Below are positions 21,245 through 53,500 of a DNA stretch of 64,000 nt, piece by piece. Every line of letters starts with the position of its first letter. The first letter of the stretch is position 1. The notes beneath the pieces were generated by a model. That model was not told the origin of the DNA, searched no databases, and saw nothing but the letters and a program-made list of their open reading frames with translations. Position numbers and translations under genes: made by a program. Origin of the DNA: Taibaiella sp. (GTDB lineage Bacteria; Bacteroidota; Bacteroidia; Chitinophagales; Chitinophagaceae); contig JAEUVV010000002.1 in the NCBI GenBank assembly GCA_016786705.1, forward strand, positions 50,106-114,105, in the 5' to 3' direction.

Positions 21245-21429
21245 CAGCCAAAACCAGATTAAAATTGAAAAAAATAACCTGCAACGTCCTGATAATATTA
21301 TTTGCCCTAATTTTTACCCCGCTATTATCTTTCGCCCAGTCAAAGACAAACCTCGATAACCCGGACAGCCTCATTCATTATTTAAAAATGGATAAGCACC
21401 CGGATTATCCTGAAGCTTCTGCTTTCTAC
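21225..21429 (+). repeat. 205-nt direct repeat, copy A (partner 23380..23584)
   Basis: Two mismatches counted by eye; covers the promoter and first 55 codons. Confidence 0.9.
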
Positions 21430-23259
21430 ATCCATAAAACGCTGGAAGAGGAATTGAATAATTTTGATGCCATTATGATCTTCGACATTGCGATCAAAAT
21501 ATTCGAAGTTAAAGATGCAGAGGACTACTTTCAACTCCTCCTGCCGCAATTTTCTTCAGGCATAAATTTAAAAGTACTGAGAATTACTACCTATAATTTA
21601 GAAAATGACAAGGTAACAACAACACATGTGGATAGAAGCTTCCTTAATCGAAAAAAACTAGAGCATTATCCACCTGTTCAATTTATTTCCGATTCCAAAA
21701 TAAAGAAAGGTTCTATAGTACGCTGCCAGATTCAATTCCAGGGTTCAAGTATTTTCAACAAATTTAATTTCCAGGAAATCCTTCCTGTTGAATACGCGGC
21801 TTTCCGCTTAAAAATACCTAAAGACCGCACAATAAAAGTAACAGAGCATGTAGGTACACCATTTCAAAAATTTGTAAACAAAGCATATTTTGAGACAGCG
21901 ATAAACTTTTCCAGCTCTGCTGTTTACTTTGAAAACAGGAGCGCAGTTCATAGCTGGGTCAGGCGAAAAGTACCACCTATAAAAAGGGAACTCTTCAATG
22001 ATGACCAGGTAGTAGAAAATGTGTTATTCGAATTTACACATAAGGATATTGAACAAAAAAGAAAGGACTGGGAGTCGGAGCTAAACAATATGACCTGGCA
22101 GGACTATAATTCAAATCTTTATAATGGCCGGTACCAGATCGCTTTTGAAAAAAATGAATATTTATATGACCTTATACCATCAATAGTCCATAAAGAGAAA
22201 GATAGTTTTATCATTGCGCGCTTACTCTTTAAATACATACAGGGTAATTTCACCCCTATAGATCAAGACAGAGTATTTCATTTTGAAACAATTGATGAAG
22301 ATAAAGAAGCTACGCCACTTACATTAAACCTTTTCTTATGCGCACTATACCGACATGCCGGTTTTCAAAGTGACCTGGTTTATATCTCCACCGACCGAAA
22401 AAACCCTCTAACTCCTGATAAAGTCAGCGATAAAAATATTGCCATTGCTGTTCGTGTCATTATGAATGGCACATCCTATTTCTGTAATCCCGCTTTGAAA
22501 AAGCTACCCTTCGGATATTTGCCATACAGCTATTACAATGGCTATACACGTTTAATCAATAAAACCGGGGGATTCATAGTCCTAAATCCTGAACTGGCCA
22601 AAAACCAATATAATATAGAAACAGCATTAAGCCATATTGATGCTGAACCTAATAAATTCAAACTGTCTATGAAAGAGAGCTTTGGCATATATGGATCCAT
22701 TCGCGAAAGAGAAGAATATACCAAAGATTCTATAGCTTATAAAAACGACTATAAAAAGCACCTGCAAAAATTAAATTCGGACTTAGACATCAATCATTAT
22801 ACCTTAAAAGTTGAAAATCTTCACGATATCGAATCCCCTTTTATGTTAACGGCTGAAGCAGAAATTGAATCGGGCAATAACTGGGACCAATTATTAATAG
22901 ATCCTTTTTTGCAAAAAGTATATAATGGAGAGAACCCTTTCCAAAAAATGAAAGACCGGAAAACGGATATCAAAATGGACTTCTGTAATAATTTTAATTA
23001 TACTTTTCGTTTTAACCTGGGTAACGGTATTACAGTTGAAGCGCTACCTTCCAAAACTGCACTACAGTATGCAAACCCGGCAGCAATTAAATATACCCAA
23101 GATGCCAGCTACAATGCAGGTACTCAAACGGTTGAAGCTAAATATAATTATGATATCATCCCTGCATTCTATGCTCCGGAAGAAGTCGAAGACCTTAATG
23201 CTTTTTATGCTGCAATCATAAAAGCCTCCAACCAAAAATTACTGCTCCGTAAACGATAA
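21265..23259 (+). CDS. DUF3857/transglutaminase-like protein, non-catalytic paralog 1
   Basis: TTG start, signal peptide, FQEILPVEYA DUF3857-like motif; ATPLTLN at the GDCK position. Confidence 0.8.
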   Translation: MKKITCNVLIILFALIFTPLLSFAQSKTNLDNPDSLIHYLKMDKHPDYPEASAFYIHKTLEEELNNFDAIMIFDIAIKIFEVKDAEDYFQLLLPQFSSGINLKVLRITTYNLENDKVTTTHVDRSFLNRKKLEHYPPVQFISDSKIKKGSIVRCQIQFQGSSIFNKFNFQEILPVEYAAFRLKIPKDRTIKVTEHVGTPFQKFVNKAYFETAINFSSSAVYFENRSAVHSWVRRKVPPIKRELFNDDQVVENVLFEFTHKDIEQKRKDWESELNNMTWQDYNSNLYNGRYQIAFEKNEYLYDLIPSIVHKEKDSFIIARLLFKYIQGNFTPIDQDRVFHFETIDEDKEATPLTLNLFLCALYRHAGFQSDLVYISTDRKNPLTPDKVSDKNIAIAVRVIMNGTSYFCNPALKKLPFGYLPYSYYNGYTRLINKTGGFIVLNPELAKNQYNIETALSHIDAEPNKFKLSMKESFGIYGSIREREEYTKDSIAYKNDYKKHLQKLNSDLDINHYTLKVENLHDIESPFMLTAEAEIESGNNWDQLLIDPFLQKVYNGENPFQKMKDRKTDIKMDFCNNFNYTFRFNLGNGITVEALPSKTALQYANPAAIKYTQDASYNAGTQTVEAKYNYDIIPAFYAPEEVEDLNAFYAAIIKASNQKLLLRKR

Positions 23260-23367
23260 ATATTCCGCTTCAAAATAAGTACAGGACTGCTTCTAGGTTA
23301 TTTTATCCTACCCGCAACCGCTGCAAATTTCAGTCGACCCGCTTCAGGCACCCGATGAAGTTCCTGA

Positions 23368-23399
23368 TTTGACCAGAATAAAGTAATCAATTACTTTTG
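23368..23399 (+). promoter_or_regulatory. Bacteroidota primary-sigma promoter (copy 2)
   Basis: TTTG-N20-TACTTTTG. Confidence 0.8.
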
Positions 23400-23584
23400 C
23401 AGCCAAAACCAGATTAAAATTGAAAAAAATAACCTGCAACGTCCTGATAATATTATTTGCCCTAATTTTTACCCCTCTATTATCTTTCGCCCAGTCAAAG
23501 ACAAACCTCGATAACCCGGACAGCCTCATTCATTATTTAAAAATGGATAAGCACCCGGATTATCCTGAAGCTTCAGCTTTCTAC
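23380..23584 (+). repeat. 205-nt direct repeat, copy B
   Basis: Near-identical to 21225..21429. Confidence 0.9.
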
Positions 23585-25411
23585 GTTCATAGAATCATCC
23601 AACAATACTATGATAATTATGATTCGGATATAACATTAGATATTGCCCTTAAAGTATTTCAAATTAAGGATGTCGAAGAACTGGCCAACCTGATTTTGCC
23701 AAAATTTGCCAATGGGATAAAACTAAAAGATCTTAAGATGACTACCTACAACCTGGAAAATGGTGTCGTTCAGACTAAAGAGCTGGACAAAACTGCACTC
23801 CAGGAAACTAAGCTCGGGCAAGGTAATTCTATTCGACTGATGACTGCGGCTCATGCCAAAAATGGCTCTATTGTCCGTTACCAGCTTACTGTAAAAGGAG
23901 CAAGACCAATCTTCGGGTTTGACTTCCAGGAGGAGCTGCCTGTCGCCTATGCAGCCTTTGAACTTAAAATATTAAAAAAACGGCTTATCCGGGTGGAAAA
24001 GACGGTAAAGTTTCCCTTCCGGGAGTTCCAGGACACTACAGCCTTTAATGCAAGTACACTACCCGCCACATCTATGGTCACCTTTCGAAACAGGCATACG
24101 ACCTATAAATGGGTAAGACGGAATGTTGCTCCGTTCAAGTTAGAAGCATTTACTTCCAAACAAAGCCCGGAGCACCTTCAAATTCATTTTGATACTGAAA
24201 AAATTACAACCTTGAAACGAATGAATGTAGTTGATTCCAATAATTTAGCCTGGGAAACTTACAATACTAAACTTTACAATTCCTACAGTCACTCTTTTGC
24301 TAAAAATGATGATTTATACAAACAACTCCCTTTAATTATCAATGCGGAAACCGATAGCCTTAAAATAGCCATGCAGCTGTTTAAGTATGTCCAGGATAGT
24401 TTTAGTTTAATAAGCCATTCTTTTGCAACAGACTTCAAGGAAATTATTAAAGAAAAAAAAGGTACTCCTGTGGCACTTAATCAATTACTGTGCGCGCTTT
24501 ACCGGCATGCAGGCCTGCCCAGCGACCTGGTATACGTTTCTACAGACAGGAAGAATCCCTTTACCCCCGATAAAGTTAATGAAGTAGCTATAGCAGTAGC
24601 TGTTCGGGTAATATTAAACGGCGTATCTTATCTGTGCGCCCCGGATCAGAAAAAACTGCCTTTCGGCTACCTGCCTTACAGGTATTATAACGGCTATTCC
24701 CGTTTAATCAATAAAACGGGTGGTGCTATTACTTTAGATCCTATTTTAGCCAAAAATAGTTATAATACAGATGTAACCCTTACTCCCCTTGATTCTGCCT
24801 CGAATAAATTCAAGATCAGCTTCCGAAAAAATTTCGGTTTCTACACTTCTCCGGACGAAAGAGAGGAATACAAAGCTGATTCCGTTACTTACAAGGAATT
24901 ATATCAAAAACACCTGGAAAGTATCACTCCGGACCTGAGCATCAGCAACTATACTTTAAGTGTTGAAAACCTGAAAAATATCGAACAGCCCTTTATTGTA
25001 CATGCGCAAGCAGAGATAGACCTTGGAGATAACTCAAACATACTATTCCTGGATCCTTTCCTGCAAAAAATATATAACGGCCAAAACCCGTTCCAGAAAA
25101 TAAAAGATCGGGACAATGAGGTGGAAATGGATTTTTGCTATACGCTGAATTATAGTTTCCGCTTACAACTCAATGATAACCTCAGGGTCGGGGAACTGCC
25201 CTCTAAAAATGCAATGCAATATGCCAGCCCGGCAGCGATCAGGTATTCCCAGGGAGCCAGCTACAATCCATCTGACAATAGCGTTGAAGTAAAATACACT
25301 TATGATATTATCCCGGTATTTTATGCACCTGAAGAAGTAGCAGACCTCAATGCATTTTATACAGAAGTTATGAAAACCATCAATCAAAAATTATTGCTTA
25401 AAAAACGATAA
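23420..25411 (+). CDS. DUF3857/transglutaminase-like protein, non-catalytic paralog 2
   Basis: Paralog of 21265; GTPVALN at the GDCK position. Confidence 0.8.
   Translation: MKKITCNVLIILFALIFTPLLSFAQSKTNLDNPDSLIHYLKMDKHPDYPEASAFYVHRIIQQYYDNYDSDITLDIALKVFQIKDVEELANLILPKFANGIKLKDLKMTTYNLENGVVQTKELDKTALQETKLGQGNSIRLMTAAHAKNGSIVRYQLTVKGARPIFGFDFQEELPVAYAAFELKILKKRLIRVEKTVKFPFREFQDTTAFNASTLPATSMVTFRNRHTTYKWVRRNVAPFKLEAFTSKQSPEHLQIHFDTEKITTLKRMNVVDSNNLAWETYNTKLYNSYSHSFAKNDDLYKQLPLIINAETDSLKIAMQLFKYVQDSFSLISHSFATDFKEIIKEKKGTPVALNQLLCALYRHAGLPSDLVYVSTDRKNPFTPDKVNEVAIAVAVRVILNGVSYLCAPDQKKLPFGYLPYRYYNGYSRLINKTGGAITLDPILAKNSYNTDVTLTPLDSASNKFKISFRKNFGFYTSPDEREEYKADSVTYKELYQKHLESITPDLSISNYTLSVENLKNIEQPFIVHAQAEIDLGDNSNILFLDPFLQKIYNGQNPFQKIKDRDNEVEMDFCYTLNYSFRLQLNDNLRVGELPSKNAMQYASPAAIRYSQGASYNPSDNSVEVKYTYDIIPVFYAPEEVADLNAFYTEVMKTINQKLLLKKR
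25223..25399 (+). repeat. 177-nt direct repeat, copy A (partner 27348..27524)
   Basis: Five mismatches counted by eye, four of them synonymous. Confidence 0.9.
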
Positions 25412-25501
25412 GAAAAGAGAGAGCCTCGAAATAAATACGGGCCTGCTCTGATCGCAGTAAATCCCGGCCAAACCGCTTCAGACAGCAGACAGAGCGCCCG
25501 A

Positions 25502-25533
25502 TTTGACCGAAAAAAAGTAATGAATTATTTTTG
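25502..25533 (+). promoter_or_regulatory. Bacteroidota primary-sigma promoter (copy 3)
   Basis: TTTG-N20-TATTTTTG. Confidence 0.8.
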
Positions 25534-25553
25534 CAGCCAAAACCAGATTCACC

Positions 25554-27536
25554 TTGAAAAAAATAACCTGTAAAATTCTTTTAATTTTATTTGCGGTACT
25601 ATTAACCCCTCTGTTATCCCGCGCCCAGGTAAAACCGGACCTTGACAATGAGGACAGCCTGGTTCGTTATTTAAAAATGGATAAGCATCCGGATTATCCC
25701 GAAGCTTCAGCCTTCTATATACAAAACATTGTCCGGCAAAATATTGACCCTTACGGATCGGATATCCAGGTAGATATCGCCTTAAAAATATTTAAGGTTA
25801 ATGACGTAGCGGAGTATGTCAACTTTATTTTACCCAAATTTACCCAGGGTATTAAATTAAAAGAATTTAAAGTAAGGACCTATAATCTCGAAAATGGATT
25901 GTTGCAAACAAGAGAACTGGATAAGAAATCACTCCAGGAAACTAAAATAAAAAAAGGCAAATCAATTCAAACGATCAGTGCAGCACATGCAAAAGACGGC
26001 TCTATTGTCCACTACCAGTTCACCATACATGGCAGCGCTGCCGGCTTGTTCCTATTCCAGGACGAATTGCCGGTACACTATGCTGAATTTACAGTAAAAA
26101 CATTAAAGGATACAAAGATTAAAGTAAAAGAAAGTATCAACACGCCATTTAAGGTATTTACCGATAAACCGGCATTCTTTAGTTCGCCCCTGCCTTCAAT
26201 TGCGATTGCCGACAGGCAGAGAAGATATATCGTCTATACATGGATCAAAAGAGACCTTGCCCCGTTTAAAGAAGAAATATTTACCTCTAAACAAAAACCG
26301 GAGCAATTAAGTATTGATTTTTACCATATAGAACAAAACATTCATAGTGAAGACAGCGAATTCCAAAACTACACCTGGAAAACTTACAATACCGTCTTGT
26401 ATCAACAGTACAGCAGTGCTTTTACAAAAAATAATTTTTTAGCAAAGCATTTACCTGCGATAACCGGGAAAGAGCAGGATACCCTTAAATTGGCACAAAA
26501 TCTTTTTAAATATGTTCAGGACAGCTTTAATGTAGGGAATGATTTAAAAACGAAAGATATCGAAAAGCTGGTGAAGGATAAAGAAGGTAACCAGGATGCT
26601 TTAAATATGCTACTATGTGCCCTATACCGGCAGGCAGGCCTGACCAGTGATCTTGTATTGGTGAGTCTGGAAAGGAAAAGACCCTTATCGCCCGGCAGGG
26701 TCACTATGAGCCACACAACGATTGCCGTAAGAGTGATGATCAATGGTGTAGCCTATCTTTGTGCCCCCGACCAGAAAAAATTACCTTTTGGCTATTTGCC
26801 CTATGCTTACTATAATGGATATACCCGCTTAATCAATAAAGAAGGGGGTTCAATAGTATTAAGCCCTGAATTGGCAAAAAACAAGATCGACGTAGCGGTG
26901 ACGATAAGTCCTGTTGATACGCTGCATCGGAAATTTAAAATTGAGTTCCGTAAAAGTTACGGTATATATGGCTCTGCCAGTGAACGGGAGCGTTACCGGA
27001 AAGACACTGCCGCCTATCACGATTTTTTTAAAAAACGTCTTGAAGCGCTTAGCCCTGATCTGAATACGAGCAATTACGCCTTCAAAGCAGAAAACTCAGA
27101 AAATATAGAACAGCCTTTGGTCCTAGCCGGGGCAGGAGAAATCGACCTGGGTGACCATCCCGGGATATTGTTTTTAGACCCATTCTTACAAAAAATATAT
27201 GATGGTCAAAACCCGTTCCAGCAAATGAAAGATCGGGATACTGATGTGGAAATGGATTTTTGCTATACGCTGAATTATAACTTCCGTTTACACCTCAATC
27301 CTAAAATGAGCGTTGAAGAACTGCCTTCAAGAAGCACTCTTCATTACGCCAGCCCGGCAGCGATCATGTATTCCCAGGGAGCCAGCTACAATCCATCTGA
27401 CAATAGCGTTGAAGTAAAATACACTTATGATATTATCCCGGTATTTTATGCGCCTGAAGAAGTGGCAGACCTCAATGCTTTTTATACAGAAGTTATGAAA
27501 ACGATCAATCAAAAATTATTGCTTAATAAAAAATAA
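25554..27536 (+). CDS. DUF3857/transglutaminase-like protein, non-catalytic paralog 3
   Basis: Paralog; GNQDALN at the GDCK position. Confidence 0.8.
   Translation: MKKITCKILLILFAVLLTPLLSRAQVKPDLDNEDSLVRYLKMDKHPDYPEASAFYIQNIVRQNIDPYGSDIQVDIALKIFKVNDVAEYVNFILPKFTQGIKLKEFKVRTYNLENGLLQTRELDKKSLQETKIKKGKSIQTISAAHAKDGSIVHYQFTIHGSAAGLFLFQDELPVHYAEFTVKTLKDTKIKVKESINTPFKVFTDKPAFFSSPLPSIAIADRQRRYIVYTWIKRDLAPFKEEIFTSKQKPEQLSIDFYHIEQNIHSEDSEFQNYTWKTYNTVLYQQYSSAFTKNNFLAKHLPAITGKEQDTLKLAQNLFKYVQDSFNVGNDLKTKDIEKLVKDKEGNQDALNMLLCALYRQAGLTSDLVLVSLERKRPLSPGRVTMSHTTIAVRVMINGVAYLCAPDQKKLPFGYLPYAYYNGYTRLINKEGGSIVLSPELAKNKIDVAVTISPVDTLHRKFKIEFRKSYGIYGSASERERYRKDTAAYHDFFKKRLEALSPDLNTSNYAFKAENSENIEQPLVLAGAGEIDLGDHPGILFLDPFLQKIYDGQNPFQQMKDRDTDVEMDFCYTLNYNFRLHLNPKMSVEELPSRSTLHYASPAAIMYSQGASYNPSDNSVEVKYTYDIIPVFYAPEEVADLNAFYTEVMKTINQKLLLNKK
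27348..27524 (+). repeat. 177-nt direct repeat, copy B
   Basis: Near-identical to 25223..25399. Confidence 0.9.
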
Positions 27537-27543
27537 AGCTGCC

Positions 27544-29478
27544 ATGCAAAATACTCTCCTTTACCTCCTCACCTGCCTGCTGGTACTCCTCTCTTGTACT
27601 ACTGCTTATACCAATCCATACGCTTTTGACAAAATACCGGATACACTGAAGCATAATGCACATGCGGTAATACGGCTGGACAGCACCAGGATTGAGATCA
27701 AAAACAATGGATTCGTTAAACGATCCACCTATATTGTTACTATACTCTCCGAAGAAGGGGACCAATTCGCAACTTTTGTCGGTGACTACAACTCCTACAG
27801 CACTTTTGAATCGCTGACCGCAGTACAATACAATGAAAAAGGAAAAGAAGTACGTAAAAAAAGTAAATCTGACTTTAACGACATTTCTGCTTTTGGCACT
27901 AATTATGCCTTCCTGCAGGATGACCGTTTTAAGGTATTTGATTTCAATTGCCAGACCTACCCTTATACGGTAAAATTTGAATATGAAAAAAAATTCAAAA
28001 GCCTGTTCTTTATCTCCAACTGGCAACCTCAAAGCAATCCAAAACTTTCTGTAGAAAAGGCGGTACTTGAAATTGCTTACCAGGGAGCGCAGCCTCTGCG
28101 GCACAAATCGGTCAACTTTCTGACATCCGATCATTTCCGTGAGGATAATACCGACCCTAAAAAGCAAATTTACAAATGGACCTTTCTTAACCTGAATGCC
28201 TTTGACTATCAACCTTACTCCAGGACCTTTCTATTGAAAAAACCCGTTGTCGAATTATTTGCCAACAAGATACAATTAGATAACTATGAAGGACCGGCAA
28301 CTACATGGAATGATTTTGGCTTCTTTTTCTACAACCTGAATAAAGATAAAGACCTGCTGTCTGCTAAAAATGCAGCCCAGATCGCAGAACTGACTAAAGG
28401 AGTAGCAGACCCCAAAAAGAAAGTAGAACTATTATATAATTACCTGCAACAAAACACGCGCTATGTACTTAATTCCAGAGGTATATTAGGCTGGCAAACG
28501 ATCTCGGCAAATGATGTGCATGAAACCGGTTATGGCGACTGTAAAGGCCTCTCCAATTATATGAAGGCTATGCTGAAAGCAGTAAACATACCCGCCTACC
28601 TGACCCTGGTATATGCCGGTGATAAACTGGGACATACAATGGATAAAGACTTTCCCACCAATACTTTTAACCATGTTATTTTATGTGTTCCCCTGGAAAA
28701 AGATACGGTCTGGCTGGAATGTACCTCCAATCTCTATCCGGCTGGATATCTCGGCGATTTCACCCACAACCGGGAGGTTTTGGTCCTTACAGAGAATGGC
28801 GGACAGATAGCCTATACACCTCATTATAAACAAAAAGACTGTTTCCTGGAAAGGAGTATAACAGTAGACCTTGACCTTGAAAAATCGGCACAAAATATAA
28901 ACTGGCAGTCGAAATATGCCGGGATTATGGCAGAGAAGGCACTGGATATGGCTACCAATAAACCTAAGAAGGCTTATGAAGACTTTTTAAACAAAGCTGT
29001 GCCCTATAAGAATTTCAAAACTAAGGAAGTGCATTCAGAGAAAAAGACATCCTCCACACACATCCCGGTGGTAAAAGAAACGGCCACCTATGAAGTGGAC
29101 CATCTTCTGACGGAAACAAAAACCAGGTACCTGCTTTCTTTGCCGCTCATACAAACCGAGCTGCCTGATATCGAAACAAAATCTGCAAGAACAGAGTCTT
29201 TCGTTTTCGTTTCAGACCTCAAGTTGAATTACCTGTATACTATAGCTTATCCGGACTCTTTAGTCCCGGAAAATATCCCTAAAGTAATAACGGAGCAATA
29301 TCCTTTCGGTAGTTATAGCTATACACCTACTGTTTCCGGAAATAAAATTTCAGTGCGTATAGAATTACTGATCAATGAAGGCACCTTTGGTCCTGAACTC
29401 TATAATCATTACCTGCAATTCTATAAAACAGCAATCAATAACACCAAACAAATCACGCTTTCCTTTCTAAAAAAATAA
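27544..29478 (+). CDS. DUF3857 plus transglutaminase-like protein with intact catalytic residues
   Basis: Signal peptide; YGDCKGLS (Cys), FNHVI (His), WLECT (acid). Confidence 0.9.
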   Translation: MQNTLLYLLTCLLVLLSCTTAYTNPYAFDKIPDTLKHNAHAVIRLDSTRIEIKNNGFVKRSTYIVTILSEEGDQFATFVGDYNSYSTFESLTAVQYNEKGKEVRKKSKSDFNDISAFGTNYAFLQDDRFKVFDFNCQTYPYTVKFEYEKKFKSLFFISNWQPQSNPKLSVEKAVLEIAYQGAQPLRHKSVNFLTSDHFREDNTDPKKQIYKWTFLNLNAFDYQPYSRTFLLKKPVVELFANKIQLDNYEGPATTWNDFGFFFYNLNKDKDLLSAKNAAQIAELTKGVADPKKKVELLYNYLQQNTRYVLNSRGILGWQTISANDVHETGYGDCKGLSNYMKAMLKAVNIPAYLTLVYAGDKLGHTMDKDFPTNTFNHVILCVPLEKDTVWLECTSNLYPAGYLGDFTHNREVLVLTENGGQIAYTPHYKQKDCFLERSITVDLDLEKSAQNINWQSKYAGIMAEKALDMATNKPKKAYEDFLNKAVPYKNFKTKEVHSEKKTSSTHIPVVKETATYEVDHLLTETKTRYLLSLPLIQTELPDIETKSARTESFVFVSDLKLNYLYTIAYPDSLVPENIPKVITEQYPFGSYSYTPTVSGNKISVRIELLINEGTFGPELYNHYLQFYKTAINNTKQITLSFLKK

Positions 29479-30541: not shown

Positions 30542-30608
30542 ATGATAAAGCCTTTAACGTTCCAAAGGAATTAATACCGGAATCAGGCAATCAAATCATT
30601 TCAAAATA

Positions 30609-30643
30609 AAAGCCCCCGCAAAGTGACACTTTACGGGGGCTTT
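30609..30643. terminator. Intrinsic terminator downstream of the 30701-34688 operon
   Basis: aaagcccccg...cgggggcttt hairpin. Confidence 0.8.
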
Positions 30644-30700
30644 CGAATAATGGCTTAATTTACGTTTAAAGTAAACTGCAATAATGATCGACCGCGGGTT

Positions 30701-31630
30701 CTAATTTGTGATCTTCTTGAATTGGATTACTCCTTTGTCACCATTGGCTAACTGGTAACGCATAAAGTAAGTACCGTCCGAAAGGGTTGACACATCCACT
30801 GCGATCTTATTCTGCCCATTGACCAGCTTTTGATTCAACTTTAAGCGCTCTATACCGGAAACTACATTAAACACACTGATGTCCATAGTTCCACCAGGCT
30901 CATCTTGATACAATTCCAAGAAGATAAACCTGCTGGCCGGGTTAGGATACCAGACTACAGCATTCTCTTTTTTATAAATCAGCATCCTTACCGGGCTATA
31001 CATCATACTGCCATCTTCATCCATAATCTTCAGCCGATAAAAATTATATCCTTTAGCCAGTCTTTCATCTATATACCTGTAGTTTTGCTTACCTGCCCCC
31101 GCAGTCGCATGTATAGTACCCAGGTAATGGAATGTTCGTCCATCATAAGACCGTTCAACTTCGTAGCGTACCTTTGTCTGCGTACTACCGGTTGCGGTCC
31201 ATTCAAGCAATGCAGCGTCCTGCTGATACAAACGTACTGTAAAATCCAGCAGATCCAAAGGAAGCGGCGCTCCATTACAATCAAACTGAACAAGCGTATC
31301 TGTGTAACAGGTGTTATTACTCACACGGAATACTGCTGAAGTGATCCCAGCCACACCGGAAAAAGTACCTGTCGTATTATCCGCTACAGGCGCGATTGCA
31401 GGTGTTGTGTTTACTATAGAATATACGTAGCCTGCGTTATGATTAGACACATGAACTTGTATTGGTATACCACTCGTACAGTTATAGCTTACCGAATCTA
31501 TTACAGGAAGCGCATTAACCTGGACCTGGGTAGTCGACAGCACCTGTGCACCGGCCTGCTGCGGGAGCATGAGTATCCCGCAACAAGCTATGCTGTACAC
31601 ATAAATAACAATAAACCTGAAACAATACAT
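30701..31630 (-). CDS. Small T9SS cargo (putative anchor subunit): N-terminal strand, one Ig-like module, PLPLDLL junction, type A CTD
   Basis: Signal AGA|Q; mature QVLSTTQVQVNALP; WYPNPA...LSDGTYF...QFKKITN. Confidence 0.85.
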   Translation of the reverse strand: MYCFRFIVIYVYSIACCGILMLPQQAGAQVLSTTQVQVNALPVIDSVSYNCTSGIPIQVHVSNHNAGYVYSIVNTTPAIAPVADNTTGTFSGVAGITSAVFRVSNNTCYTDTLVQFDCNGAPLPLDLLDFTVRLYQQDAALLEWTATGSTQTKVRYEVERSYDGRTFHYLGTIHATAGAGKQNYRYIDERLAKGYNFYRLKIMDEDGSMMYSPVRMLIYKKENAVVWYPNPASRFIFLELYQDEPGGTMDISVFNVVSGIERLKLNQKLVNGQNKIAVDVSTLSDGTYFMRYQLANGDKGVIQFKKITN

Positions 31631-31670
31631 CCTGATTCTTTTTTTCTACTTGAGTATTAAAAAAGCTACT

Positions 31671-32945
31671 CTAAGGGGTCACCGGATTGCTACATCCATT
31701 TGCGTCCGTTATTTTCATCAGGTTATACGTATTGGTCGCGTTAGGTGTAATCATTGAAGATGGTATCGTAACAGTACCACCATTCGCTACATTAGAATAA
31801 GTCTGGGTACCGCTTACACCACTTTTCTCAATTTCAAGGCTAAAGTTTCCTGTACCACAGGTTGCATTGAAGGATAATTGTACTGCTGAGCCTTCACAAA
31901 GCTCCGGAGCAAGCGCCGCGATAGAGCCATTAGGTTTAGGACGTACCGTTACGGTAAAGGACTGTGGCGTACCCGCACAGGCTACTGCATTGTTAGTAAA
32001 TGTTGGTGTTACTGCTATCGTAGCCACTTCATTGGTACAAGAAGGCGTGTTATCGTTGGCAGCAGTGAAGGCAGCTATATTGCCGGTACCGCTCGCTGCA
32101 ATACCTACAGCAGTATTGGTATTGGTCCAGTCATAGGTAACACCACCTGTGCTCGTACTGGAGAAGCTGATCTCGGGCACTGAATTGCCTTCACATTTCG
32201 TAATATCACTTAAAGTGCCTGCAAATGCCGGAGTAGGATTAACCGTGATCGTATAGGTCACTGCCGTACCGGTACAACCTTCATATACCGGGGTAATAGA
32301 AATTGTAGCAGTCACCGGAGCGGTACCCGTATTGCCGGCGGTGAAGCCGGGTACCTGAGACACATTAGTAACATCGGCTAAACCTATACCGGCACCTCCG
32401 CTGATGTTAAAGGTCACACCAGGCGTTACGCCGGTAGGTGTACTACTCACACTTGTTGCCGGAACAGCCTGACTGTTACATACGGTCATATTAGCCGGTG
32501 CAGTAGCGGTAGGTATTGGATTAATCGTTACTGTAACCGGTAGGGCGTTCGTTGTATAGTTACAATAACCACCTTCGGCCCTTACATAGTATGTTTTCGT
32601 GATCGGCTGTGTGCCGGTATTAGCAGGGCTGACGGTAAGGCTTGCACCGTTTCCTATAGAAGTGCTGCCTGTTGTAGGCGCTGCATCAGCGTACCACACC
32701 CATTGAGCGGCCGGGGTTCCGGAGCCCAGATGTCCGTTTGAAATAGACAAGGTAGTACTTCCACCGGTACAAAAACTGGTATTGGAAGCGGATACAGTAG
32801 CTCCCGATATAGAGGAGCTATCGTTGACAACAACGCTTGTTGAACTGATCTGGGCGAGGGTCTTCTGGCTCCCCAGGAAAGTAATGCCTACGGCACCGCA
32901 AAGTGCCCATAACATTACACGCATAGTGTAATTGATTCTTTTCAT
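31671..32945 (-). CDS. Secreted Ig/PKD-like repeat protein without CTD (putative shaft subunit)
   Basis: Signal TLA|Q; mature QISSTSVVVN; repeats ending TVTINPIP, TITVNPTP, TVTVRPKP; ends KITDANGCSNPVTP*. Confidence 0.8.
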   Translation of the reverse strand: MKRINYTMRVMLWALCGAVGITFLGSQKTLAQISSTSVVVNDSSSISGATVSASNTSFCTGGSTTLSISNGHLGSGTPAAQWVWYADAAPTTGSTSIGNGASLTVSPANTGTQPITKTYYVRAEGGYCNYTTNALPVTVTINPIPTATAPANMTVCNSQAVPATSVSSTPTGVTPGVTFNISGGAGIGLADVTNVSQVPGFTAGNTGTAPVTATISITPVYEGCTGTAVTYTITVNPTPAFAGTLSDITKCEGNSVPEISFSSTSTGGVTYDWTNTNTAVGIAASGTGNIAAFTAANDNTPSCTNEVATIAVTPTFTNNAVACAGTPQSFTVTVRPKPNGSIAALAPELCEGSAVQLSFNATCGTGNFSLEIEKSGVSGTQTYSNVANGGTVTIPSSMITPNATNTYNLMKITDANGCSNPVTP

Positions 32946-32996
32946 TTTTTCCTACTTGTTTAAAATGGATAATTAATTTTTATTTCATAAGGTCTG

Positions 32997-34688
32997 TTAA
33001 GGTGATTGCTTGACGCAACCATTATTATCGGTAATCTTGGTCAGGTTGAAAGTAGTAGTTATAGCGACGTTACCCACCGCTGTAAAGGGGGTACCGCTCG
33101 TAATATTTGTATAGGTAGTTCCATTAATAATCAAACTAAAAGGCCCGGCGCCTGATGTTGCGGTAAAAATGAGCTGCACGGCATTGCCCTCGCATACGGG
33201 ACTGGCTGCTGCGCTGATTGTACCATCTGGCAAAGCGTTGACCACGACAGTAGCGGTAGCGGACATGGTATTATTACAGACCGGTGCCGATTGAAAAGCC
33301 ACACTCTGAACGACATAGGCGAAGTTACCCGCCGTACCGGTAGGGACAGCCAGGGTCGCATTACCGGATGCCGGTACATTAATCGTTTGGTTAGCCCCGC
33401 CATTGAGTTTATAGGTCACAGTAACCGGCAGCGATGCCGGATTGCTAAAAGTAATGCTGGGGGAAGGTGCATTCATACAAACAGTAGTCCCGCCACTTAA
33501 AGTAACAGAAGGTACAGGTCTTATGACCACTTTAACCACGTTGCTTTCGTCGGTCAGTGTTGTGGCAGAAGGCATACCGCTATTTGTGCGGGTGACACTT
33601 AATACTCTGCGGTAAAAATAAGTACCTGCAGCCGTAACGGTGGGAGTATAAGAAATGCCGTTTGCGCCGCTTACATTAGTAAAATTAACACTGTCGGATG
33701 AAAGTTGCCATTGGTAGCTCACCGTAAATCCTGCAGTTGAAGCTATCGGGGCATCTGTGAACGCATTGTTCCCGCTCAGCTGTGCGATCGTACCTCCACT
33801 ACAGATCGTCTGGTCTGCAGCTATAGTATTAGGTACTTTTGCCAGGTTCTGGAAGCTCAGCCGGTTTCCTCCTGCAGATTCATAATACTCCAGCAATAAA
33901 TTAGAATTTCCACTAAGCTTAAAAAATTGTTTAGGATAATTAGTATAGCCTTGCTCTACCCACCTGTTAAACACCAGCACGTTATCAACCGTTAGCCGCA
34001 CCCCGTCATCGGCCCCCATATCGGCAAGATAAATGCCCTTGGGTTTGGTACTGTTCATCCTGAGCCGGGTAGCAAAATATTCTGTGTACAAGCGTGCTCT
34101 TAATGTATTATTCGAATACATATCAACACATGCCGCATCGCCGTCAAAGCCATAGTCAAATGACTCCGGTTGCGGTGTGACTGCCAGACCTATATACCGG
34201 TTAAATCCATTGGTCTCATTAGGAGCAGAAGCAGAACCATCTAAGCGTTTGTAGTAGTGAACCTGCCATTGATTGGCACCCGCAGCCAGGGCATTATCTT
34301 CGGTATTACTGCCCCCGGAAAAGGTATGAGTGATCGTTGTGGAGCCACTACCGAAAGTTCTGCAATTGTACACTCTAACTTGCCCGGAAATTGCCGCAGT
34401 AAATGTTATCGAATTGCCTGTACTGCTGTGTAAAGTAGCACTTCCGTTAATTACAGTAATCCCATTTACAGAATTGCTGACTGTATATTGAAGGCCTTTT
34501 ATTACATTCAATAACGTATAATTGCCGAAGCCGACACCTGAAATAGTGGGATTGACACCATTACCAATGCAAATATAAACTGGTGCCCCTACACTGGAAC
34601 CTCCGCTACACTGAGCATAGCCCTTTGAAGAAAAAACAAACAGACCTAAATGGACAAAAGCCCATAAGGATACTTTAAAAATTTTCAT
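32997..34688 (-). CDS. Secreted PA14-like plus Ig-repeat protein without CTD (putative tip adhesin)
   Basis: Signal GYA|Q; ADDGVRLTVD...LEYYESAGG PA14-like motif; ends KITDNNGCVKQSP*. Confidence 0.8.
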   Translation of the reverse strand: MKIFKVSLWAFVHLGLFVFSSKGYAQCSGGSSVGAPVYICIGNGVNPTISGVGFGNYTLLNVIKGLQYTVSNSVNGITVINGSATLHSSTGNSITFTAAISGQVRVYNCRTFGSGSTTITHTFSGGSNTEDNALAAGANQWQVHYYKRLDGSASAPNETNGFNRYIGLAVTPQPESFDYGFDGDAACVDMYSNNTLRARLYTEYFATRLRMNSTKPKGIYLADMGADDGVRLTVDNVLVFNRWVEQGYTNYPKQFFKLSGNSNLLLEYYESAGGNRLSFQNLAKVPNTIAADQTICSGGTIAQLSGNNAFTDAPIASTAGFTVSYQWQLSSDSVNFTNVSGANGISYTPTVTAAGTYFYRRVLSVTRTNSGMPSATTLTDESNVVKVVIRPVPSVTLSGGTTVCMNAPSPSITFSNPASLPVTVTYKLNGGANQTINVPASGNATLAVPTGTAGNFAYVVQSVAFQSAPVCNNTMSATATVVVNALPDGTISAAASPVCEGNAVQLIFTATSGAGPFSLIINGTTYTNITSGTPFTAVGNVAITTTFNLTKITDNNGCVKQSP

Positions 34689-34745: not shown

Positions 34746-34753
34746 CAAAGGTA
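34746..34753 (-). promoter_or_regulatory. -7 element for the 34688 operon
   Basis: TACCTTTG on the minus strand about 58 nt upstream of the start. Confidence 0.55.
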
Positions 34754-34903: not shown

Positions 34904-35599
34904 CTAGAACAAATAACCGACCCGGACACTTAATGGAAAATTGACATTCCAGGAACGGCCTTCCCGGTTAAAAGCCGTCGGGAAATTAAAATGCGGCACC
35001 GGGGCAAATCCATCTTGTGGATTGATCCGCCCTGAATGTGTCGCATTACGGTATTGTAGCCCTATACCGCCGTAAAAATCTACTATAATGCGCTTAAAAC
35101 TGGTATAGTAGCCGAATTTAAAATTCAGGCAAAAGTTGTTTTTGGTAAGCTCAAAAGTATCCTTGTAATGTTGCAGTTCAGATAATTCAAAATTCATTGC
35201 CGCTCTGTTCCGGCTGTACATATAATCCACTTCCCCGGCAACATAAGTCCCTTTATGCCCCAGCTTACGCAGGTAATATTTTTGCTCTGCTGCTATTTTA
35301 AAGCCCTTTTTGTCCGGGTCAACTGTCGTTTCAAAAATGTTTAAAGGAGGGCGCGGGAGTAAATAAGTCCCTGCAAGCTGTGTACTCCATCTGCTTTTAT
35401 ACATACGTTCATAGCTCAGCTCTACCCCGGGATTTACCCAACCTATTAACTTAAGGGGTGTAAATTTTAGCTGGTTAAAATAACCTTTGACGCCGGGATG
35501 CTGAAACGCCAGTTCCTTATAACTCTGGCCTGCAGCCCATGTATGGCACACAATTAACAGCCAGAAGCTGCCAGCCAGTTTTCCAAGTATAGATCTCAT
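34904..35599 (-). CDS. DUF3575-like outer-membrane beta-barrel protein, paralog 1
   Basis: Signal peptide; NQLKFTPLKL, ELSYER; ends SVRVGYLF. Confidence 0.75.
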   Translation of the reverse strand: MRSILGKLAGSFWLLIVCHTWAAGQSYKELAFQHPGVKGYFNQLKFTPLKLIGWVNPGVELSYERMYKSRWSTQLAGTYLLPRPPLNIFETTVDPDKKGFKIAAEQKYYLRKLGHKGTYVAGEVDYMYSRNRAAMNFELSELQHYKDTFELTKNNFCLNFKFGYYTSFKRIIVDFYGGIGLQYRNATHSGRINPQDGFAPVPHFNFPTAFNREGRSWNVNFPLSVRVGYLF

Positions 35600-35739: not shown

Positions 35740-36450
35740 CTAAAACAGGTAACCGATCCGCATTGTTAATGGGAAATAGGGCTCCCAGGAACGCCCATCA
35801 CGATTATAAATAGGTGCTAATGTGAAATGTGGAAACGGCCCTGCAAATTGGTCCTGTGGATGGATACGCCCTGACTGTTGTGCATTGCGATATTGTGCTC
35901 CCAATCCCCCGGAAAAGCTAACCATTATTCTCTTTAAAGTGAAGTAATAGCCACATTTAAGACTAAAATAAAGGTTGTTCTTAGTAATTTCAAAAGTATC
36001 CCTGTAAGGACGGGCCAGGGTGATTGATTCAAAGCTCATTGCAGTTGTATTACGGCTATATAAATAGGCGACCTCTGCGGCCACATAGAAGCCCTTGCGC
36101 GCCATTTTATGCACATAAAATTTTTCTTCCGCAGCTATTTTAAAGCCGCTTTTATCCCCGTATGGCGCCGGCGGCCGCTTTTCTAATAAAGTGTATGGCA
36201 ATAAATAGGTTGCTGTCAACTGGCTGCTCCACCTGCTTTTATCCATACGTTCATAACCGAGCTCTATCCCGGGGTTGAGCCAGCCCAATAATTTAAGCGG
36301 TGCAAACTGTAATTGATTAAGATAACCTTTCAATCTAAACGAGGTATCGCCAGCTACAGCAGGATCATTATTAGTTTGGGCAAAAGCTGCAGTAGGGAGC
36401 AACAAAAGGAAACAAAAACTATTGATCAGCCTGAACCGGGTAGCTTTCAT
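35740..36450 (-). CDS. DUF3575-like outer-membrane beta-barrel protein, paralog 2
   Basis: Close paralog of 34904..35599; ends TMRIGYLF. Confidence 0.75.
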   Translation of the reverse strand: MKATRFRLINSFCFLLLLPTAAFAQTNNDPAVAGDTSFRLKGYLNQLQFAPLKLLGWLNPGIELGYERMDKSRWSSQLTATYLLPYTLLEKRPPAPYGDKSGFKIAAEEKFYVHKMARKGFYVAAEVAYLYSRNTTAMSFESITLARPYRDTFEITKNNLYFSLKCGYYFTLKRIMVSFSGGLGAQYRNAQQSGRIHPQDQFAGPFPHFTLAPIYNRDGRSWEPYFPLTMRIGYLF

Positions 36451-50562: not shown

Positions 50563-53500
50563 CTAATTTTTAAGTTTTATGAATTTCTCTACGCTTGTAG
50601 CAGTACCCGAAATAACCTGCAGATGATAAATGCCGTCTAACAATTGACTTAGATCAAGTGTGACTTTGGAGGCATTATGCTGCGTCTCCAAAACCAACCT
50701 ACCGCTCAGGTCAAGCACCCGCAAGGTTGCATTGCCGCTTAGGCCTTCTATGGTCATCACCCCTGATACCGGGTTGGGATAAATCTTGAGGCCACTACTA
50801 TGATTGTGCGCAAACGTTACCATACGCACATCGCCGGCGCGCTGCTTACCATCATAATCAGTTTGCAACAAACGGTAGAAGTGCTTACCGATCAATGGCA
50901 CGGCATCAACAAAATGATAATCCAACCTGCTACTGCTATTGCCGCCTGCCGCCAGGCTGCTCTGGAAACCGATATTTTTCCAGGTAAAGCCATCTGCACT
51001 ACGTTGGATATAGAAACCCTTATTCTGCTGCTCCCGGCCAGTAGCCCATTCTAAAGCGACATGCTTGCCTGATATTACAGCGTCGAAAAACAGGAACGCA
51101 ACCGGCAATGGCTGCCCCCAGCTGATCGTATAAGTAGCCGGAGTGGGATCTCCTGCGCGGGCGGCATCCACATAAGCATATTGAAAACTCATGCTGGTAT
51201 ACCCCGATCCGGTAAGTACTACACTAAATAAAGAAGGGTTGGTAAAAATTGTTGTGTTCAGGTCTGCGGAAGTCACCTGCACCCCGTTATACCATAACTG
51301 TCCGTTGGTAGGTAGGCTACTAATGCGCACGCCTTGCGGACTTCGGTTTTCACCCAAATTACCATTGTACGTTCCATCTTCATTATCCAATCCGGACATT
51401 AAAGGTGCATTACCGGCACCGCCACTTAATGATATAGATGTATTACCAACAGGCTGTACTGGTAAGATATAAGTTTTGGGGTCAGAATCTGGCACCTTGT
51501 TAATCCCAAAATTTACATTATTGTTACTTTGGGTAACCGTGCCTACGGCTATAATGCCGTTAGCAGTTCCATCACTACCTGTACTAGTACCAATTACTTC
51601 TCCGGTATTTGAGAAGCCGTCAGGCAAGACCGTTACCGGCACTGCCGTCTGGCCTATTGTTACTGCATTTGAGCTGGTAAGATAAATGGTATATGCGCTT
51701 CCTGGTGTTGCTAAAAATGAATATTCTCCACTGGTAACTGTCACCACTGAATCTACTTTACCGGTAGTATTGTTGTACAATACAGCATATAAAGGAGTGC
51801 TTTGGTTATAGACAGCTCCGTTCACGGTATTGTCTTCTAAGCCATTACCATCCATAAGCACCTTACCACAAACAGAAGCTTTAACCGTATCTAATTTGCT
51901 CACAATACAATTGTTGCTGCCCACATAACGTGCAAAAACCGTATAGCTTCCAGGTATAAGGCCGGAAAACAGCGGACTGGTTTGCCAGGCACCACTGCTG
52001 AGCCTGTATTCATAACTAGACCCTACAGGAGTGGATACGGTAATACTTCCGCTTGACTGGTTACAGTCTGAATGCACTACGGTAGTAATAGGATCAGCAG
52101 GAGGCAATAACTTGAATTCAATATCATCCAGAGACAGATCATTACCAGAACCTCCGGGTGCATTGTTCCTGATCACAAGGTCGAAGCTGGAAGATGCAGC
52201 AGTAAATGAGGGAATACCAAATTGCTGCCAGGTTGCCGTAAGAATATCGCCGGAGGTTGCCGATTGCAATACCGTATATGTATTAGGATCAATGACTTCA
52301 AATGTCACATTTGGCTTGATCGTAGCCCCGGGGTTGATATTGGCTACCCAGGCAGTAAATGCATAAGTAGCACCGGGAATGACATTGGTAAAGCGTCTTC
52401 TGAAGAAGGCATCTTGTTCATTATTGGCATCAACCACCATGGCACGACCATTTACATCACTCGGTGTATGATCGGCAAAATTGGTTGCTCCGGGGAAAAG
52501 GTCTGTGTTTACGTTCGATACAATATACTGATTGGAAAAACTGACCCCACCATTCATATAATGATAAGAGGTTTGTCCGGCAAGTGGCGTAGCTGCTGTA
52601 GCCGTTGTTCCAAAGGTCTCAATATAGCGGCTATTGCAATCGCTGGACATGACAAATGGATTGACTTTAGTGTTTTCAAACACTACGCCTACCGTTTCGC
52701 CATCCACTACGTTAATGGTGGCATTATTACCCACCAAATCAAATGAAGAGTTGGTAGTAGGATCAAACAACTGGATATTCGTCAAATCCCAACCGGCAGG
52801 AACCAGTTCAGAGACCGTATATGTTCCAGGCGCAACAGGGATTAATATCCCATTTCCTTCAGAGCTTAACCTAATCCTCTCATCATTGAGCCATAATATT
52901 TCAGTTGCACTTTTTATCCGGGTATAAATATTTTTACTGTTGTCGCTTACGTTTAACTCATTGGTTGTGCCCCATACTAAATTACCTAAACCACCTGTCA
53001 TACGGGACGCATATTTTCTACTGGTAGTTTCTCCCGCAAGCCAGGAGGTACCACTTCCGCTATATTCATATACAAAGTCTTGCGTTGAGCCAAAGATTGT
53101 ACCGTTTGCTGTAACGGCAACATCTCTGTTCATGGACACTCCAGCATTACCCAGGTTGATAACCGTCGTATTGGTTTGTGTTGGCACTGTTGGAAGTGCG
53201 GGCGGTACGTACCGGTAAATATTACCATTTGCTCTTCTTACTATCGCATCTCCAGTAACCGGGTCGGCATCCACATCTTGGCAATCTGTAGCAGCACTTA
53301 AACGTATCCAGGTCTGTGAGCCCGTAGCACCACGCGGATACATATAAAGTATATCATTAAAAATCCCATAAATATGACCTTTCCAATCGGATGCAATATC
53401 TTGCCAGCCCTGAGCCGGGCTGAGTAATGTTGCCCCAGCTGTAGTAACCAAATAGGCATATCCATTAGTTGTGGCGCTTGCACCCTGGTTATTGACCATT

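Follow-up and report, generated by a model that had tools for sequence, protein, structure and literature searches.

A three-gene adhesin locus of Taibaiella sp. with truncated Ig-like domains: a candidate donor-strand chain linked to the type IX secretion system

Chaperone-usher pili (Fim/Pap) are built from immunoglobulin (Ig)-like subunits without a C-terminal G strand, and the N-terminal extension of the next subunit matches the strand that is missing. In these pili, the lectin-like tip subunit is an acceptor only, the middle subunits both donate and accept a strand, and the last subunit is a donor only. The same organization is suggested for a locus of three genes, here called A, B, and C, which lies in a 64,000-nucleotide stretch of Taibaiella sp. 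(Bacteroidota; contig JAEUVV010000002.1, positions 50,106 to 114,105 of the forward strand), referred to below as the window. In this triad, A would be an acceptor only, B donor and acceptor, and C a donor only, which also bears an export tag. The most economical reading of this anatomy is a donor-strand chain with a head, a stalk, and a base. We consider it probable, although well short of certain, that A, B, and C make up one fibrillar surface protein that was split at the gene level inside the F-G loops of two Ig-like domains, that the chain is joined by donor-strand complementation, and that it is exported via the C-terminal sorting domain (CTD) of C, which is a type IX secretion system (T9SS) domain. 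This triad also differs from chaperone-usher pili. Its subunits are multi-domain rods rather than single pilin domains, each operon has one copy of each subunit, and passage through the outer membrane would be mediated by the T9SS via a single CTD. Neither a PapD-like chaperone nor an usher was found among the called genes flanking six operons or among the window neighbors scanned.

Type V pili (FimA/Mfa1) occur in the same phylum as the triad and are assembled by strand exchange. Type V pilins are made as lipoprotein precursors, their N-terminal strand is removed by a protease, and their donor strands are C-terminal. The polarity of the triad is reversed, with an N-terminal donor and a C-terminal acceptor. 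Moreover, the triad proteins have signal-peptidase I sites with Gln at +1 instead of a lipoprotein precursor, none of the three has a FimA/Mfa Pfam match at E<=1, and the CTD is located on the base subunit and not on the tip. Mfa5, a type V pilus tip protein with a T9SS CTD, ties a pilus component to T9SS export (PMC7835359, PMC8512630). For T9SS precedents of donor-strand assembly, piggyback transport, or CTD-less cargo, the literature searched gave only this type V pilus work and general reviews. The initial annotation of the locus, made from the letters alone, knew of no donor-strand system with a T9SS type A CTD, and our search likewise returned none.

Giant Ig-repeat proteins of Bacteroidota (GhpA-like proteins and the SprB-like proteins of Flavobacterium) contain the same type of domain as the end of A and B, repeated 3-46 times. 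These are single polypeptides of 1000-6800 amino acids (aa), whereas the rod of the triad consists of three chains, each with a signal peptide, and has one type A CTD. The 'TLIK'-type tails of the Flavobacterium examples retrieved are presumably type B CTDs, and the neighbor of ~333 aa encoded downstream of them is presumably PorP/SprF-like. A beta-sandwich is completed in trans, without a chaperone-usher pathway, in TasA of Bacillus, in archaeal thread and bundling pili, and in the engineered SpyTag/SpyCatcher split of CnaB2. The folds and export routes of these systems are unrelated to those of the triad, and some of them form isopeptide bonds, whereas a covalent lock is not evident in the triad.

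The C-terminal ends of A and B are the first line of evidence. A ends in ...TTFNLTKITDNNGC-VKQSP (...NLTKITDNNGC-VKQSP) and B ends in ...NTYNLMKITDANGC-SNPVTP (...NLMKITDANGC-SNPVTP), that is, 5 and 6 residues past the Cys, respectively. In internal modules, a short loop and a strand come after the equivalent Cys, ahead of a P-x-P linker (PVC-NNTMS-ATATVVVNALP in A; AC-AGTPQ-SFTVTVRPKP in B). Homologous terminal modules stopping 5-6 residues after this Cys had been described in the initial annotation, and they are present as described, with 49% identity between the two. A profile of the terminal domain was searched against 1.84 billion representative proteins and matched 2638 of them, the best 150 of which are giant proteins with 3-46 copies each. 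Within these best 150, the ...GC end is reached by 581 copies of the domain; 579 of these copies are internal, with the loop and the strand after the Cys (consensus SGSATVTVNPLP; ...TDANGC-SNALSGS-ATVTVNPLP), and a single copy is found within 12 residues of the end of its protein. In 52 distinct A- and B-type proteins, by contrast, the domain stops 2-6 residues past the Cys.

Structure prediction gives a similar picture. The AlphaFold2 (AF2) model of B, built with 29 orthologues, has a mean predicted local distance difference test score (pLDDT) of 88. Its terminal domain contains six strands (residues 339-344, 355-363, 368-374, 381-386, 391-394, and 407-413) compared to seven in the first domain (residues 50-142), and strands are modeled ahead of the P-x-P linkers at residues 135-142, 229-236, and 328-335. 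The best structural matches of this model in Foldseek are Ig rod fragments of the Aureispira Ig-repeat protein GhpA (9flp, 9fls, and 9flv). The last domain in both A and B is a truncated copy of a domain type that has one more strand in its normal form.

The second line of evidence is that the mature N-termini of B and C resemble strand G plus its linker, a likeness that was already suggested in the initial annotation. A profile built from the 24 residues after the Cys in internal domains was applied to the window; it ranked the true internal junctions of A and B first and then the mature N-termini of C and B, which outranked the other 51 open reading frames (ORFs) of at least 100 aa. With the C N-terminus added to the terminal domain of B, the full-domain profile scored 71.0 instead of 64.5 bits (+6.5), a gain reached by 0 of 1000 random 17-mers. 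Addition of the B N-terminus to the terminal domain of A raised the score from 62.9 to 66.3 bits (+3.4), which was reached by 42 of 1000 random 17-mers. In nine split pairs, the tail after the Cys together with the residues ahead of the strand core adds up to 9-13 residues, and the corresponding loop of internal domains has a median of 10 (interquartile range 9-12). Because this combined length is normal, we place the break in the F-G loop, whose length is preserved.

In AF2 monomer models, the putative donor strands are coil. The pLDDT is below 50 over residues 23-38 of B (mean 46 for residues 31-40) and over residues 21-38 of C (mean 39 for residues 31-40), and in neither model is the strand part of the protein's own first domain. 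At the same time, this strand is the most conserved segment of B, with a mean column identity of 0.76 compared to 0.65-0.68 for the domains (27 orthologues). Past the strand core, the N-termini of B and C diverge consistently (...VN-D-SSS in B and ...x-x-x-P-VIDS in C). In these comparisons, the view that the mature N-terminus encoded by the next gene is a homologue of the missing strand G held. More generally, all tested sequence-level predictions of the donor-strand idea, namely truncation, strand homology, conservation tied to position in the operon, the lack of a single-ORF orthologue, and strands left unbound by AF2, were borne out.

The arrangement is conserved well beyond Taibaiella. 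The A-B-C order, the truncation point, and the N-terminal strand are kept in ~20 operons of Chitinophagaceae, Saprospiraceae, and metagenomes, in two classes of Bacteroidota. Adjacent A-B-C genes on the same strand are present in E. flava, E. aurantiacus, Taibaiella sp. KBW10, and T. koreensis, as well as in several metagenome-assembled genomes (MAGs) of Saprospiraceae and in unassigned metagenome contigs. They are also present in an uncultured Edaphocola with 88% identity in B, which marks the window as Edaphocola-like. B has ~35 full-length orthologues of 383-426 aa with 39-88% identity. All of these start with a signal peptide followed by AQ-I-S-S/T-x-S/T-V/I-T-V and end in Y-D/N-L-M-K-I-T-D-A-N-G-C plus 3-6 residues. 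Likewise, 13 of 13 A orthologues end in ...NLTKITD.N.C plus 3-5 residues, and all C orthologues start with AQ-I/V-x-S-T-x-V-x-V-...-P. Among Met-start proteins, the truncated end and the N-terminal motif occur together in 28 B-type proteins, the truncated end alone in 13 A-type proteins, and the motif alone in nine C-type proteins; neither feature is present in any of 132 giant unsplit relatives. A single ORF combining the subunits was not found among ~45 truncated-end proteins. All of the ~20 operons contain a single B, without any instance of an A-B-B-C order. The heads vary between operons and include PA14-like and PKD_6 proteins, a protein with a faint fn3 match only, and a 1541-aa protein with DUF4347 and F5/8C domains, while B and C are constant.

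Each of the three genes has its own start and signal peptide, and only C has a T9SS CTD, in agreement with the first description of the locus. Signal-peptidase I cleavage is predicted between YA and QCSGG in A (signal peptide at residues 1-25), between LA and QISSTSVVVND in B (residues 1-31), and between GA and QVLSTTQVQVNALP in C (residues 1-28), with Gln at +1 in all three. A has neither a CTD nor an N-terminal donor strand. A lipobox is absent from A and B, and the residue preceding the Cys of mature A is Gln. Cleavage before Gln has been described as the signal-peptidase I 'Q-rule' of Bacteroidetes (PMC5837995, PMC10653852). C exceeds the cut-offs of Por_Secre_tail PF18962 (27 bits; score 35.2 bits) and TIGR04183 (23 bits; score 26.8 bits), and its orthologues carry PF18962 as well. 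A and B have no match to Por_Secre_tail, TIGR04183, or a type B CTD at E<=1. In C, a small beta-sandwich (residues 44-116) and an FN3-like domain (residues 127-219) precede the CTD (residues 228-309), whose AF2 strands lie at residues 235-306. Pfam matches in B are Ig_7 and PKD_5. A has a weak PA14 match at residues 218-252, and a Saprospiraceae orthologue reaches the PA14 gathering score.

In the route that we propose, each subunit would be exported through the Sec pathway, with cleavage by signal peptidase I ahead of the Gln. Once in the periplasm, B would use its unpaired N-terminal strand to fill the place of the missing G strand in the last domain of A, and the N-terminal strand of C would complete the last domain of B in the same manner. 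The product would be a linear non-covalent chain consisting of a variable head (A, PA14-like here), a stalk (B, an Ig rod), and a base (C). Its topology would be that of a single giant adhesin with a nick in each of two F-G loops. The type IX translocon would take up the chain via C, the sole bearer of a type A CTD, as if it were one long unsplit adhesin, and the chain would finally be placed on the cell surface or released; a chaperone and an usher would not be involved. The insertion of the strands, a 1:1:1 stoichiometry, assembly in the periplasm, and co-export that depends on the CTD are all inferences. Depending on the species, type A CTD cargo either stays attached to the cell or is released, and it is uncertain that C anchors the complex at the cell. 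Folded proteins are described as being moved across the outer membrane by the T9SS, with the 6497-aa SprB among them (PMC9251779), which makes the threading of a chain of beads led by the CTD of C plausible.

If this proposal is correct, the triad would be the first strand-swapped fiber tied to the T9SS. The T9SS would then export non-covalent hetero-oligomers, and proteins without a CTD would have to be considered as cargo, which would change the prediction of secretomes from genomes. With a donor-strand fiber that needs neither chaperone nor usher, one would also have to ask what keeps the subunits from pairing too early or wrongly. The combination of a variable head with a constant stalk and a constant base suggests a natural form of plug-in head swapping, which may be of interest for surface display in Bacteroidota. 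Cultured carriers such as Edaphocola flava, E. aurantiacus, and Taibaiella spp. exist, so the hypothesis is directly testable.

Several observations weigh against this proposal. AF2 assigns a pLDDT of 80-94 to the terminal domain of B without a seventh strand, and the domain may, judging from this model, be stable alone. The gain in score at the A-B junction is modest (p ~0.04), and shuffled N-termini match the observed scores in 2-4% of trials. The ~20 operons yielded no clear residue covariation between a terminal domain and the strand that would pair with it. Finally, transport of a non-covalent hetero-oligomer by the T9SS was not found in the literature searched.

Two alternatives deserve the most attention. 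In the first, the triad encodes a true pilus in which B polymerizes: the strand of one B would fit the terminal domain of another B, giving A-(B)n-C fibers of variable length with A as the cap and C as the terminator. The distribution of donor and acceptor ends over the three subunits is the tip, shaft, and terminator logic of chaperone-usher pili, and the close similarity of the two terminal domains points in the same direction. In addition, swapped pairs score like cognate pairs (70.4 bits for A with the C strand and 67.5 bits for B with its own strand), so sequence alone does not enforce specificity. Nevertheless, the single B in every operon, with no A-B-B-C arrangement, and the conserved difference between the N-termini of B and C past the strand core argue against polymerization. 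In the full-length AF2 model of B (29 orthologues), the N-terminal strand stays disordered and is not docked into its own terminal domain in cis, but geometry could prevent such docking and the result is not decisive on polymerization. On balance, we regard a polymerizing B as unlikely. A related and similarly doubtful view is that of a new class of pilus, with donor-strand assembly in the periplasm without chaperone or usher, a B that may polymerize, interchangeable lectin-like heads (A), and a whole fiber pulled through the T9SS by the CTD of C. In that case, A and B would be the first CTD-less proteins that hitchhike through this system.

In the second alternative, the gene was split but no complementation takes place, and the triad is a relic of that fission. 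Each of the proteins would act separately, the six-stranded terminal domains would be stable, the N-terminal strands would be leftover linker, and A and B would be periplasmic or exported by another route. The confident AF2 model of the truncated domain is consistent with this view. However, a leftover linker would not be expected to be the most conserved segment of B among orthologues that are 39-88% identical, and two classes have retained the gene order together with the truncation point and the N-terminal motif; neither of the two sequence features occurs in any of the 132 unsplit relatives. Moreover, periplasmic Ig-rod proteins with a lectin-like head would have no obvious role. We give this explanation only a small chance.

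It is less probable still that other machinery, for instance a factor in the periplasm or a T9SS or outer-membrane component, recognizes the N-terminal motif Q-I-S-S/T-x-T-V-x-V as a signal. The motif is short, conserved, and disordered in monomer models, as such signals often are, but in the Met-start set it is found only on B- and C-type proteins, and in the loci examined it lies downstream of a gene for a truncated domain. It also aligns with strand G plus linker of just the domain type in which the truncation occurs, and it restores the normal loop length, and no conserved accessory gene was found beside the triad in the loci examined. The last explanation, a single long adhesin gene broken by mutation or sequencing error, could appeal to the reading frame shared by A and B and to a degraded triad in one Saprospiraceae MAG. 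Against it, four stops and a complete signal peptide separate A from B, the junctions are identical in three independent runs, and the split is kept in ~20 operons with an intact signal peptide on each subunit; this conservation already refutes it.

Candidates for a covalent or specific lock in the donor-strand chain were considered separately. Covariation between the partner strand and the F strand (e.g., T/T versus M/L) fails in Saprospiraceae. An intermolecular disulfide was rejected, as the odd Cys count of C does not track that of B. B has two extra Cys residues, at ~300 in the fourth domain and at 364 in the terminal domain (window positions ~32046 and ~31854), which are either both present or both absent across orthologues. 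They are thus probably paired with each other, suggesting an inter-domain disulfide. The F-strand Lys of L-T/M-K-I-T-D (residue 552 of A and residue 411 of B) is present in 85% of truncated domains compared to 2% of 490 internal copies, in which Ser predominates at this position. This enrichment may be an adaptation to the split state, or it may be clade-specific or phylogenetic in origin. An isopeptide lock via this Lys is not supported because the residue is replaced by Gln or Ser in variant triads.

The coordinates of the genes, domains, and signals of the triad are listed in Table 1.

Table 1. Features of the A-B-C triad in the window (positions refer to the 64,000-nucleotide stretch).
Feature	Position	Strand	Description
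Gene A	32997-34688	(-)	563 aa; head/tip subunit; PA14-like head, Ig-like domains, truncated terminal domain
Gene B	31671-32945	(-)	424 aa; stalk subunit; donor strand, four complete Ig-like domains, truncated terminal domain
Gene C	30701-31630	(-)	309 aa; base subunit; donor strand, small beta-sandwich, FN3-like domain, T9SS type A CTD
Terminal acceptor domain of A	33000..33236	(-)	Residues 485-563; Ig-like; stops 5 residues past the F-strand Cys; without strand G
Terminal acceptor domain of B	31674..31943	(-)	Residues 335-424; six strands; stops 6 residues past the Cys
Proposed donor strand of B	32820..32852	(-)	Residues 32-42, QISSTSVVVND
Proposed donor strand of C	31505..31546	(-)	Residues 29-42, QVLSTTQVQVNALP; fits the profile built from strand G plus linker in internal domains
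T9SS type A C-terminal sorting domain of C	30704..30949	(-)	Residues 228-309; PF18962, TIGR04183
A-B intergenic gap, 51 nt	32946..32996	(-)	Four in-frame stops; CAAGTAGGAAAAA ahead of ATG
B-C intergenic gap, 40 nt	31631..31670	(-)	CAAGTAGAAAAAA ahead of ATG
Bacteroidota-type -7 promoter motif TAnnTTTG (TACCTTTG)	34746..34753	(-)	~65 nt upstream of the A start; consensus match only
Intrinsic-terminator-like hairpin	30599..30644	(-)	17 bp, -28.2 kcal/mol, z = -6.85, followed by the U-run UUUUAUUUU; downstream of C

The three genes are arranged head to tail on one strand. A and B are in the same reading frame, interrupted by the stops and the signal peptide of B, and C is in a frame different from that of B. 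The DNA of the junctions is identical and free of indels in contigs of three independent bioreactor metagenome runs; a fourth metagenome run has nine single-nucleotide polymorphisms at the junctions and no indel. The TAnnTTTG motif is absent from both gaps, and the copy upstream of A is the sole intergenic one at the locus. The hairpin after C was missed by a simple terminator scan and was confirmed by folding. With a single promoter motif upstream of A, none in the gaps, and a hairpin after C, the three genes are probably transcribed as one operon. Both gaps contain CAAGTAG(G/A)AAAAA just before the start codons of B and C (32946-32965 and 31631-31655, minus strand). This shared element may serve as an A-rich region for translation initiation, or it may point to a duplication of the junction module.

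Some variation was observed among the triads of other genomes. In some genomes, two triads are located in tandem, and in Edaphocola and Taibaiella the second triad adjoins mfd (L001 9022-12213; L005, L006, L031, and L032). The A protein of this second triad is head-less (312 aa) and consists of two Ig-like domains and the truncated terminal domain. A decaying triad is present in the Saprospiraceae MAG L014 (4730-8100), where an insertion of transposase-like ORFs follows A and frameshifts have broken B and C; the triad of the window is unlike this degraded copy. The locus L030 (1549-5840) has a different arrangement, in which an A-like head protein whose last domain retains its G strand (...TVTVNPLPATGEIIPD at the C-terminus) is followed by two signal-peptide proteins of ~260 aa ending in ITTD and ITTN. 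One contig (L008) is labeled as a Deltaproteobacteria MAG, but its triad is nearly identical in organization and sequence to those of Saprospiraceae, so the label is probably a binning error.

The genes around the triad in the window are unrelated to it and include mfd, an SDR gene, transglutaminase-like paralogues, and an SNF2 helicase. Directly upstream of A, at 34904-35599 and 35740-36450 (minus strand), two paralogous signal-peptide proteins of ~230 aa are encoded that end in ...GYLF. Neither has a Pfam match, and they are possibly outer-membrane-like. A role of this pair as an accessory outer-membrane partner was rejected because the proteins are not homologous to those of similar-sized genes near triads elsewhere, and they are probably not part of the system. 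On the other side of the triad, four tandem paralogues of ~650 aa are located at 21265-29478 (plus strand). Three of these match Transglut_core, the best-matching copy also has DUF3857 and DUF3858, and the first one (21265-23259) has no Pfam match. Further away, at 50563-56499 (minus strand), an unsplit 1978-aa protein with its own Por_Secre_tail CTD is encoded, and the same genome thus also makes conventional large T9SS cargo.

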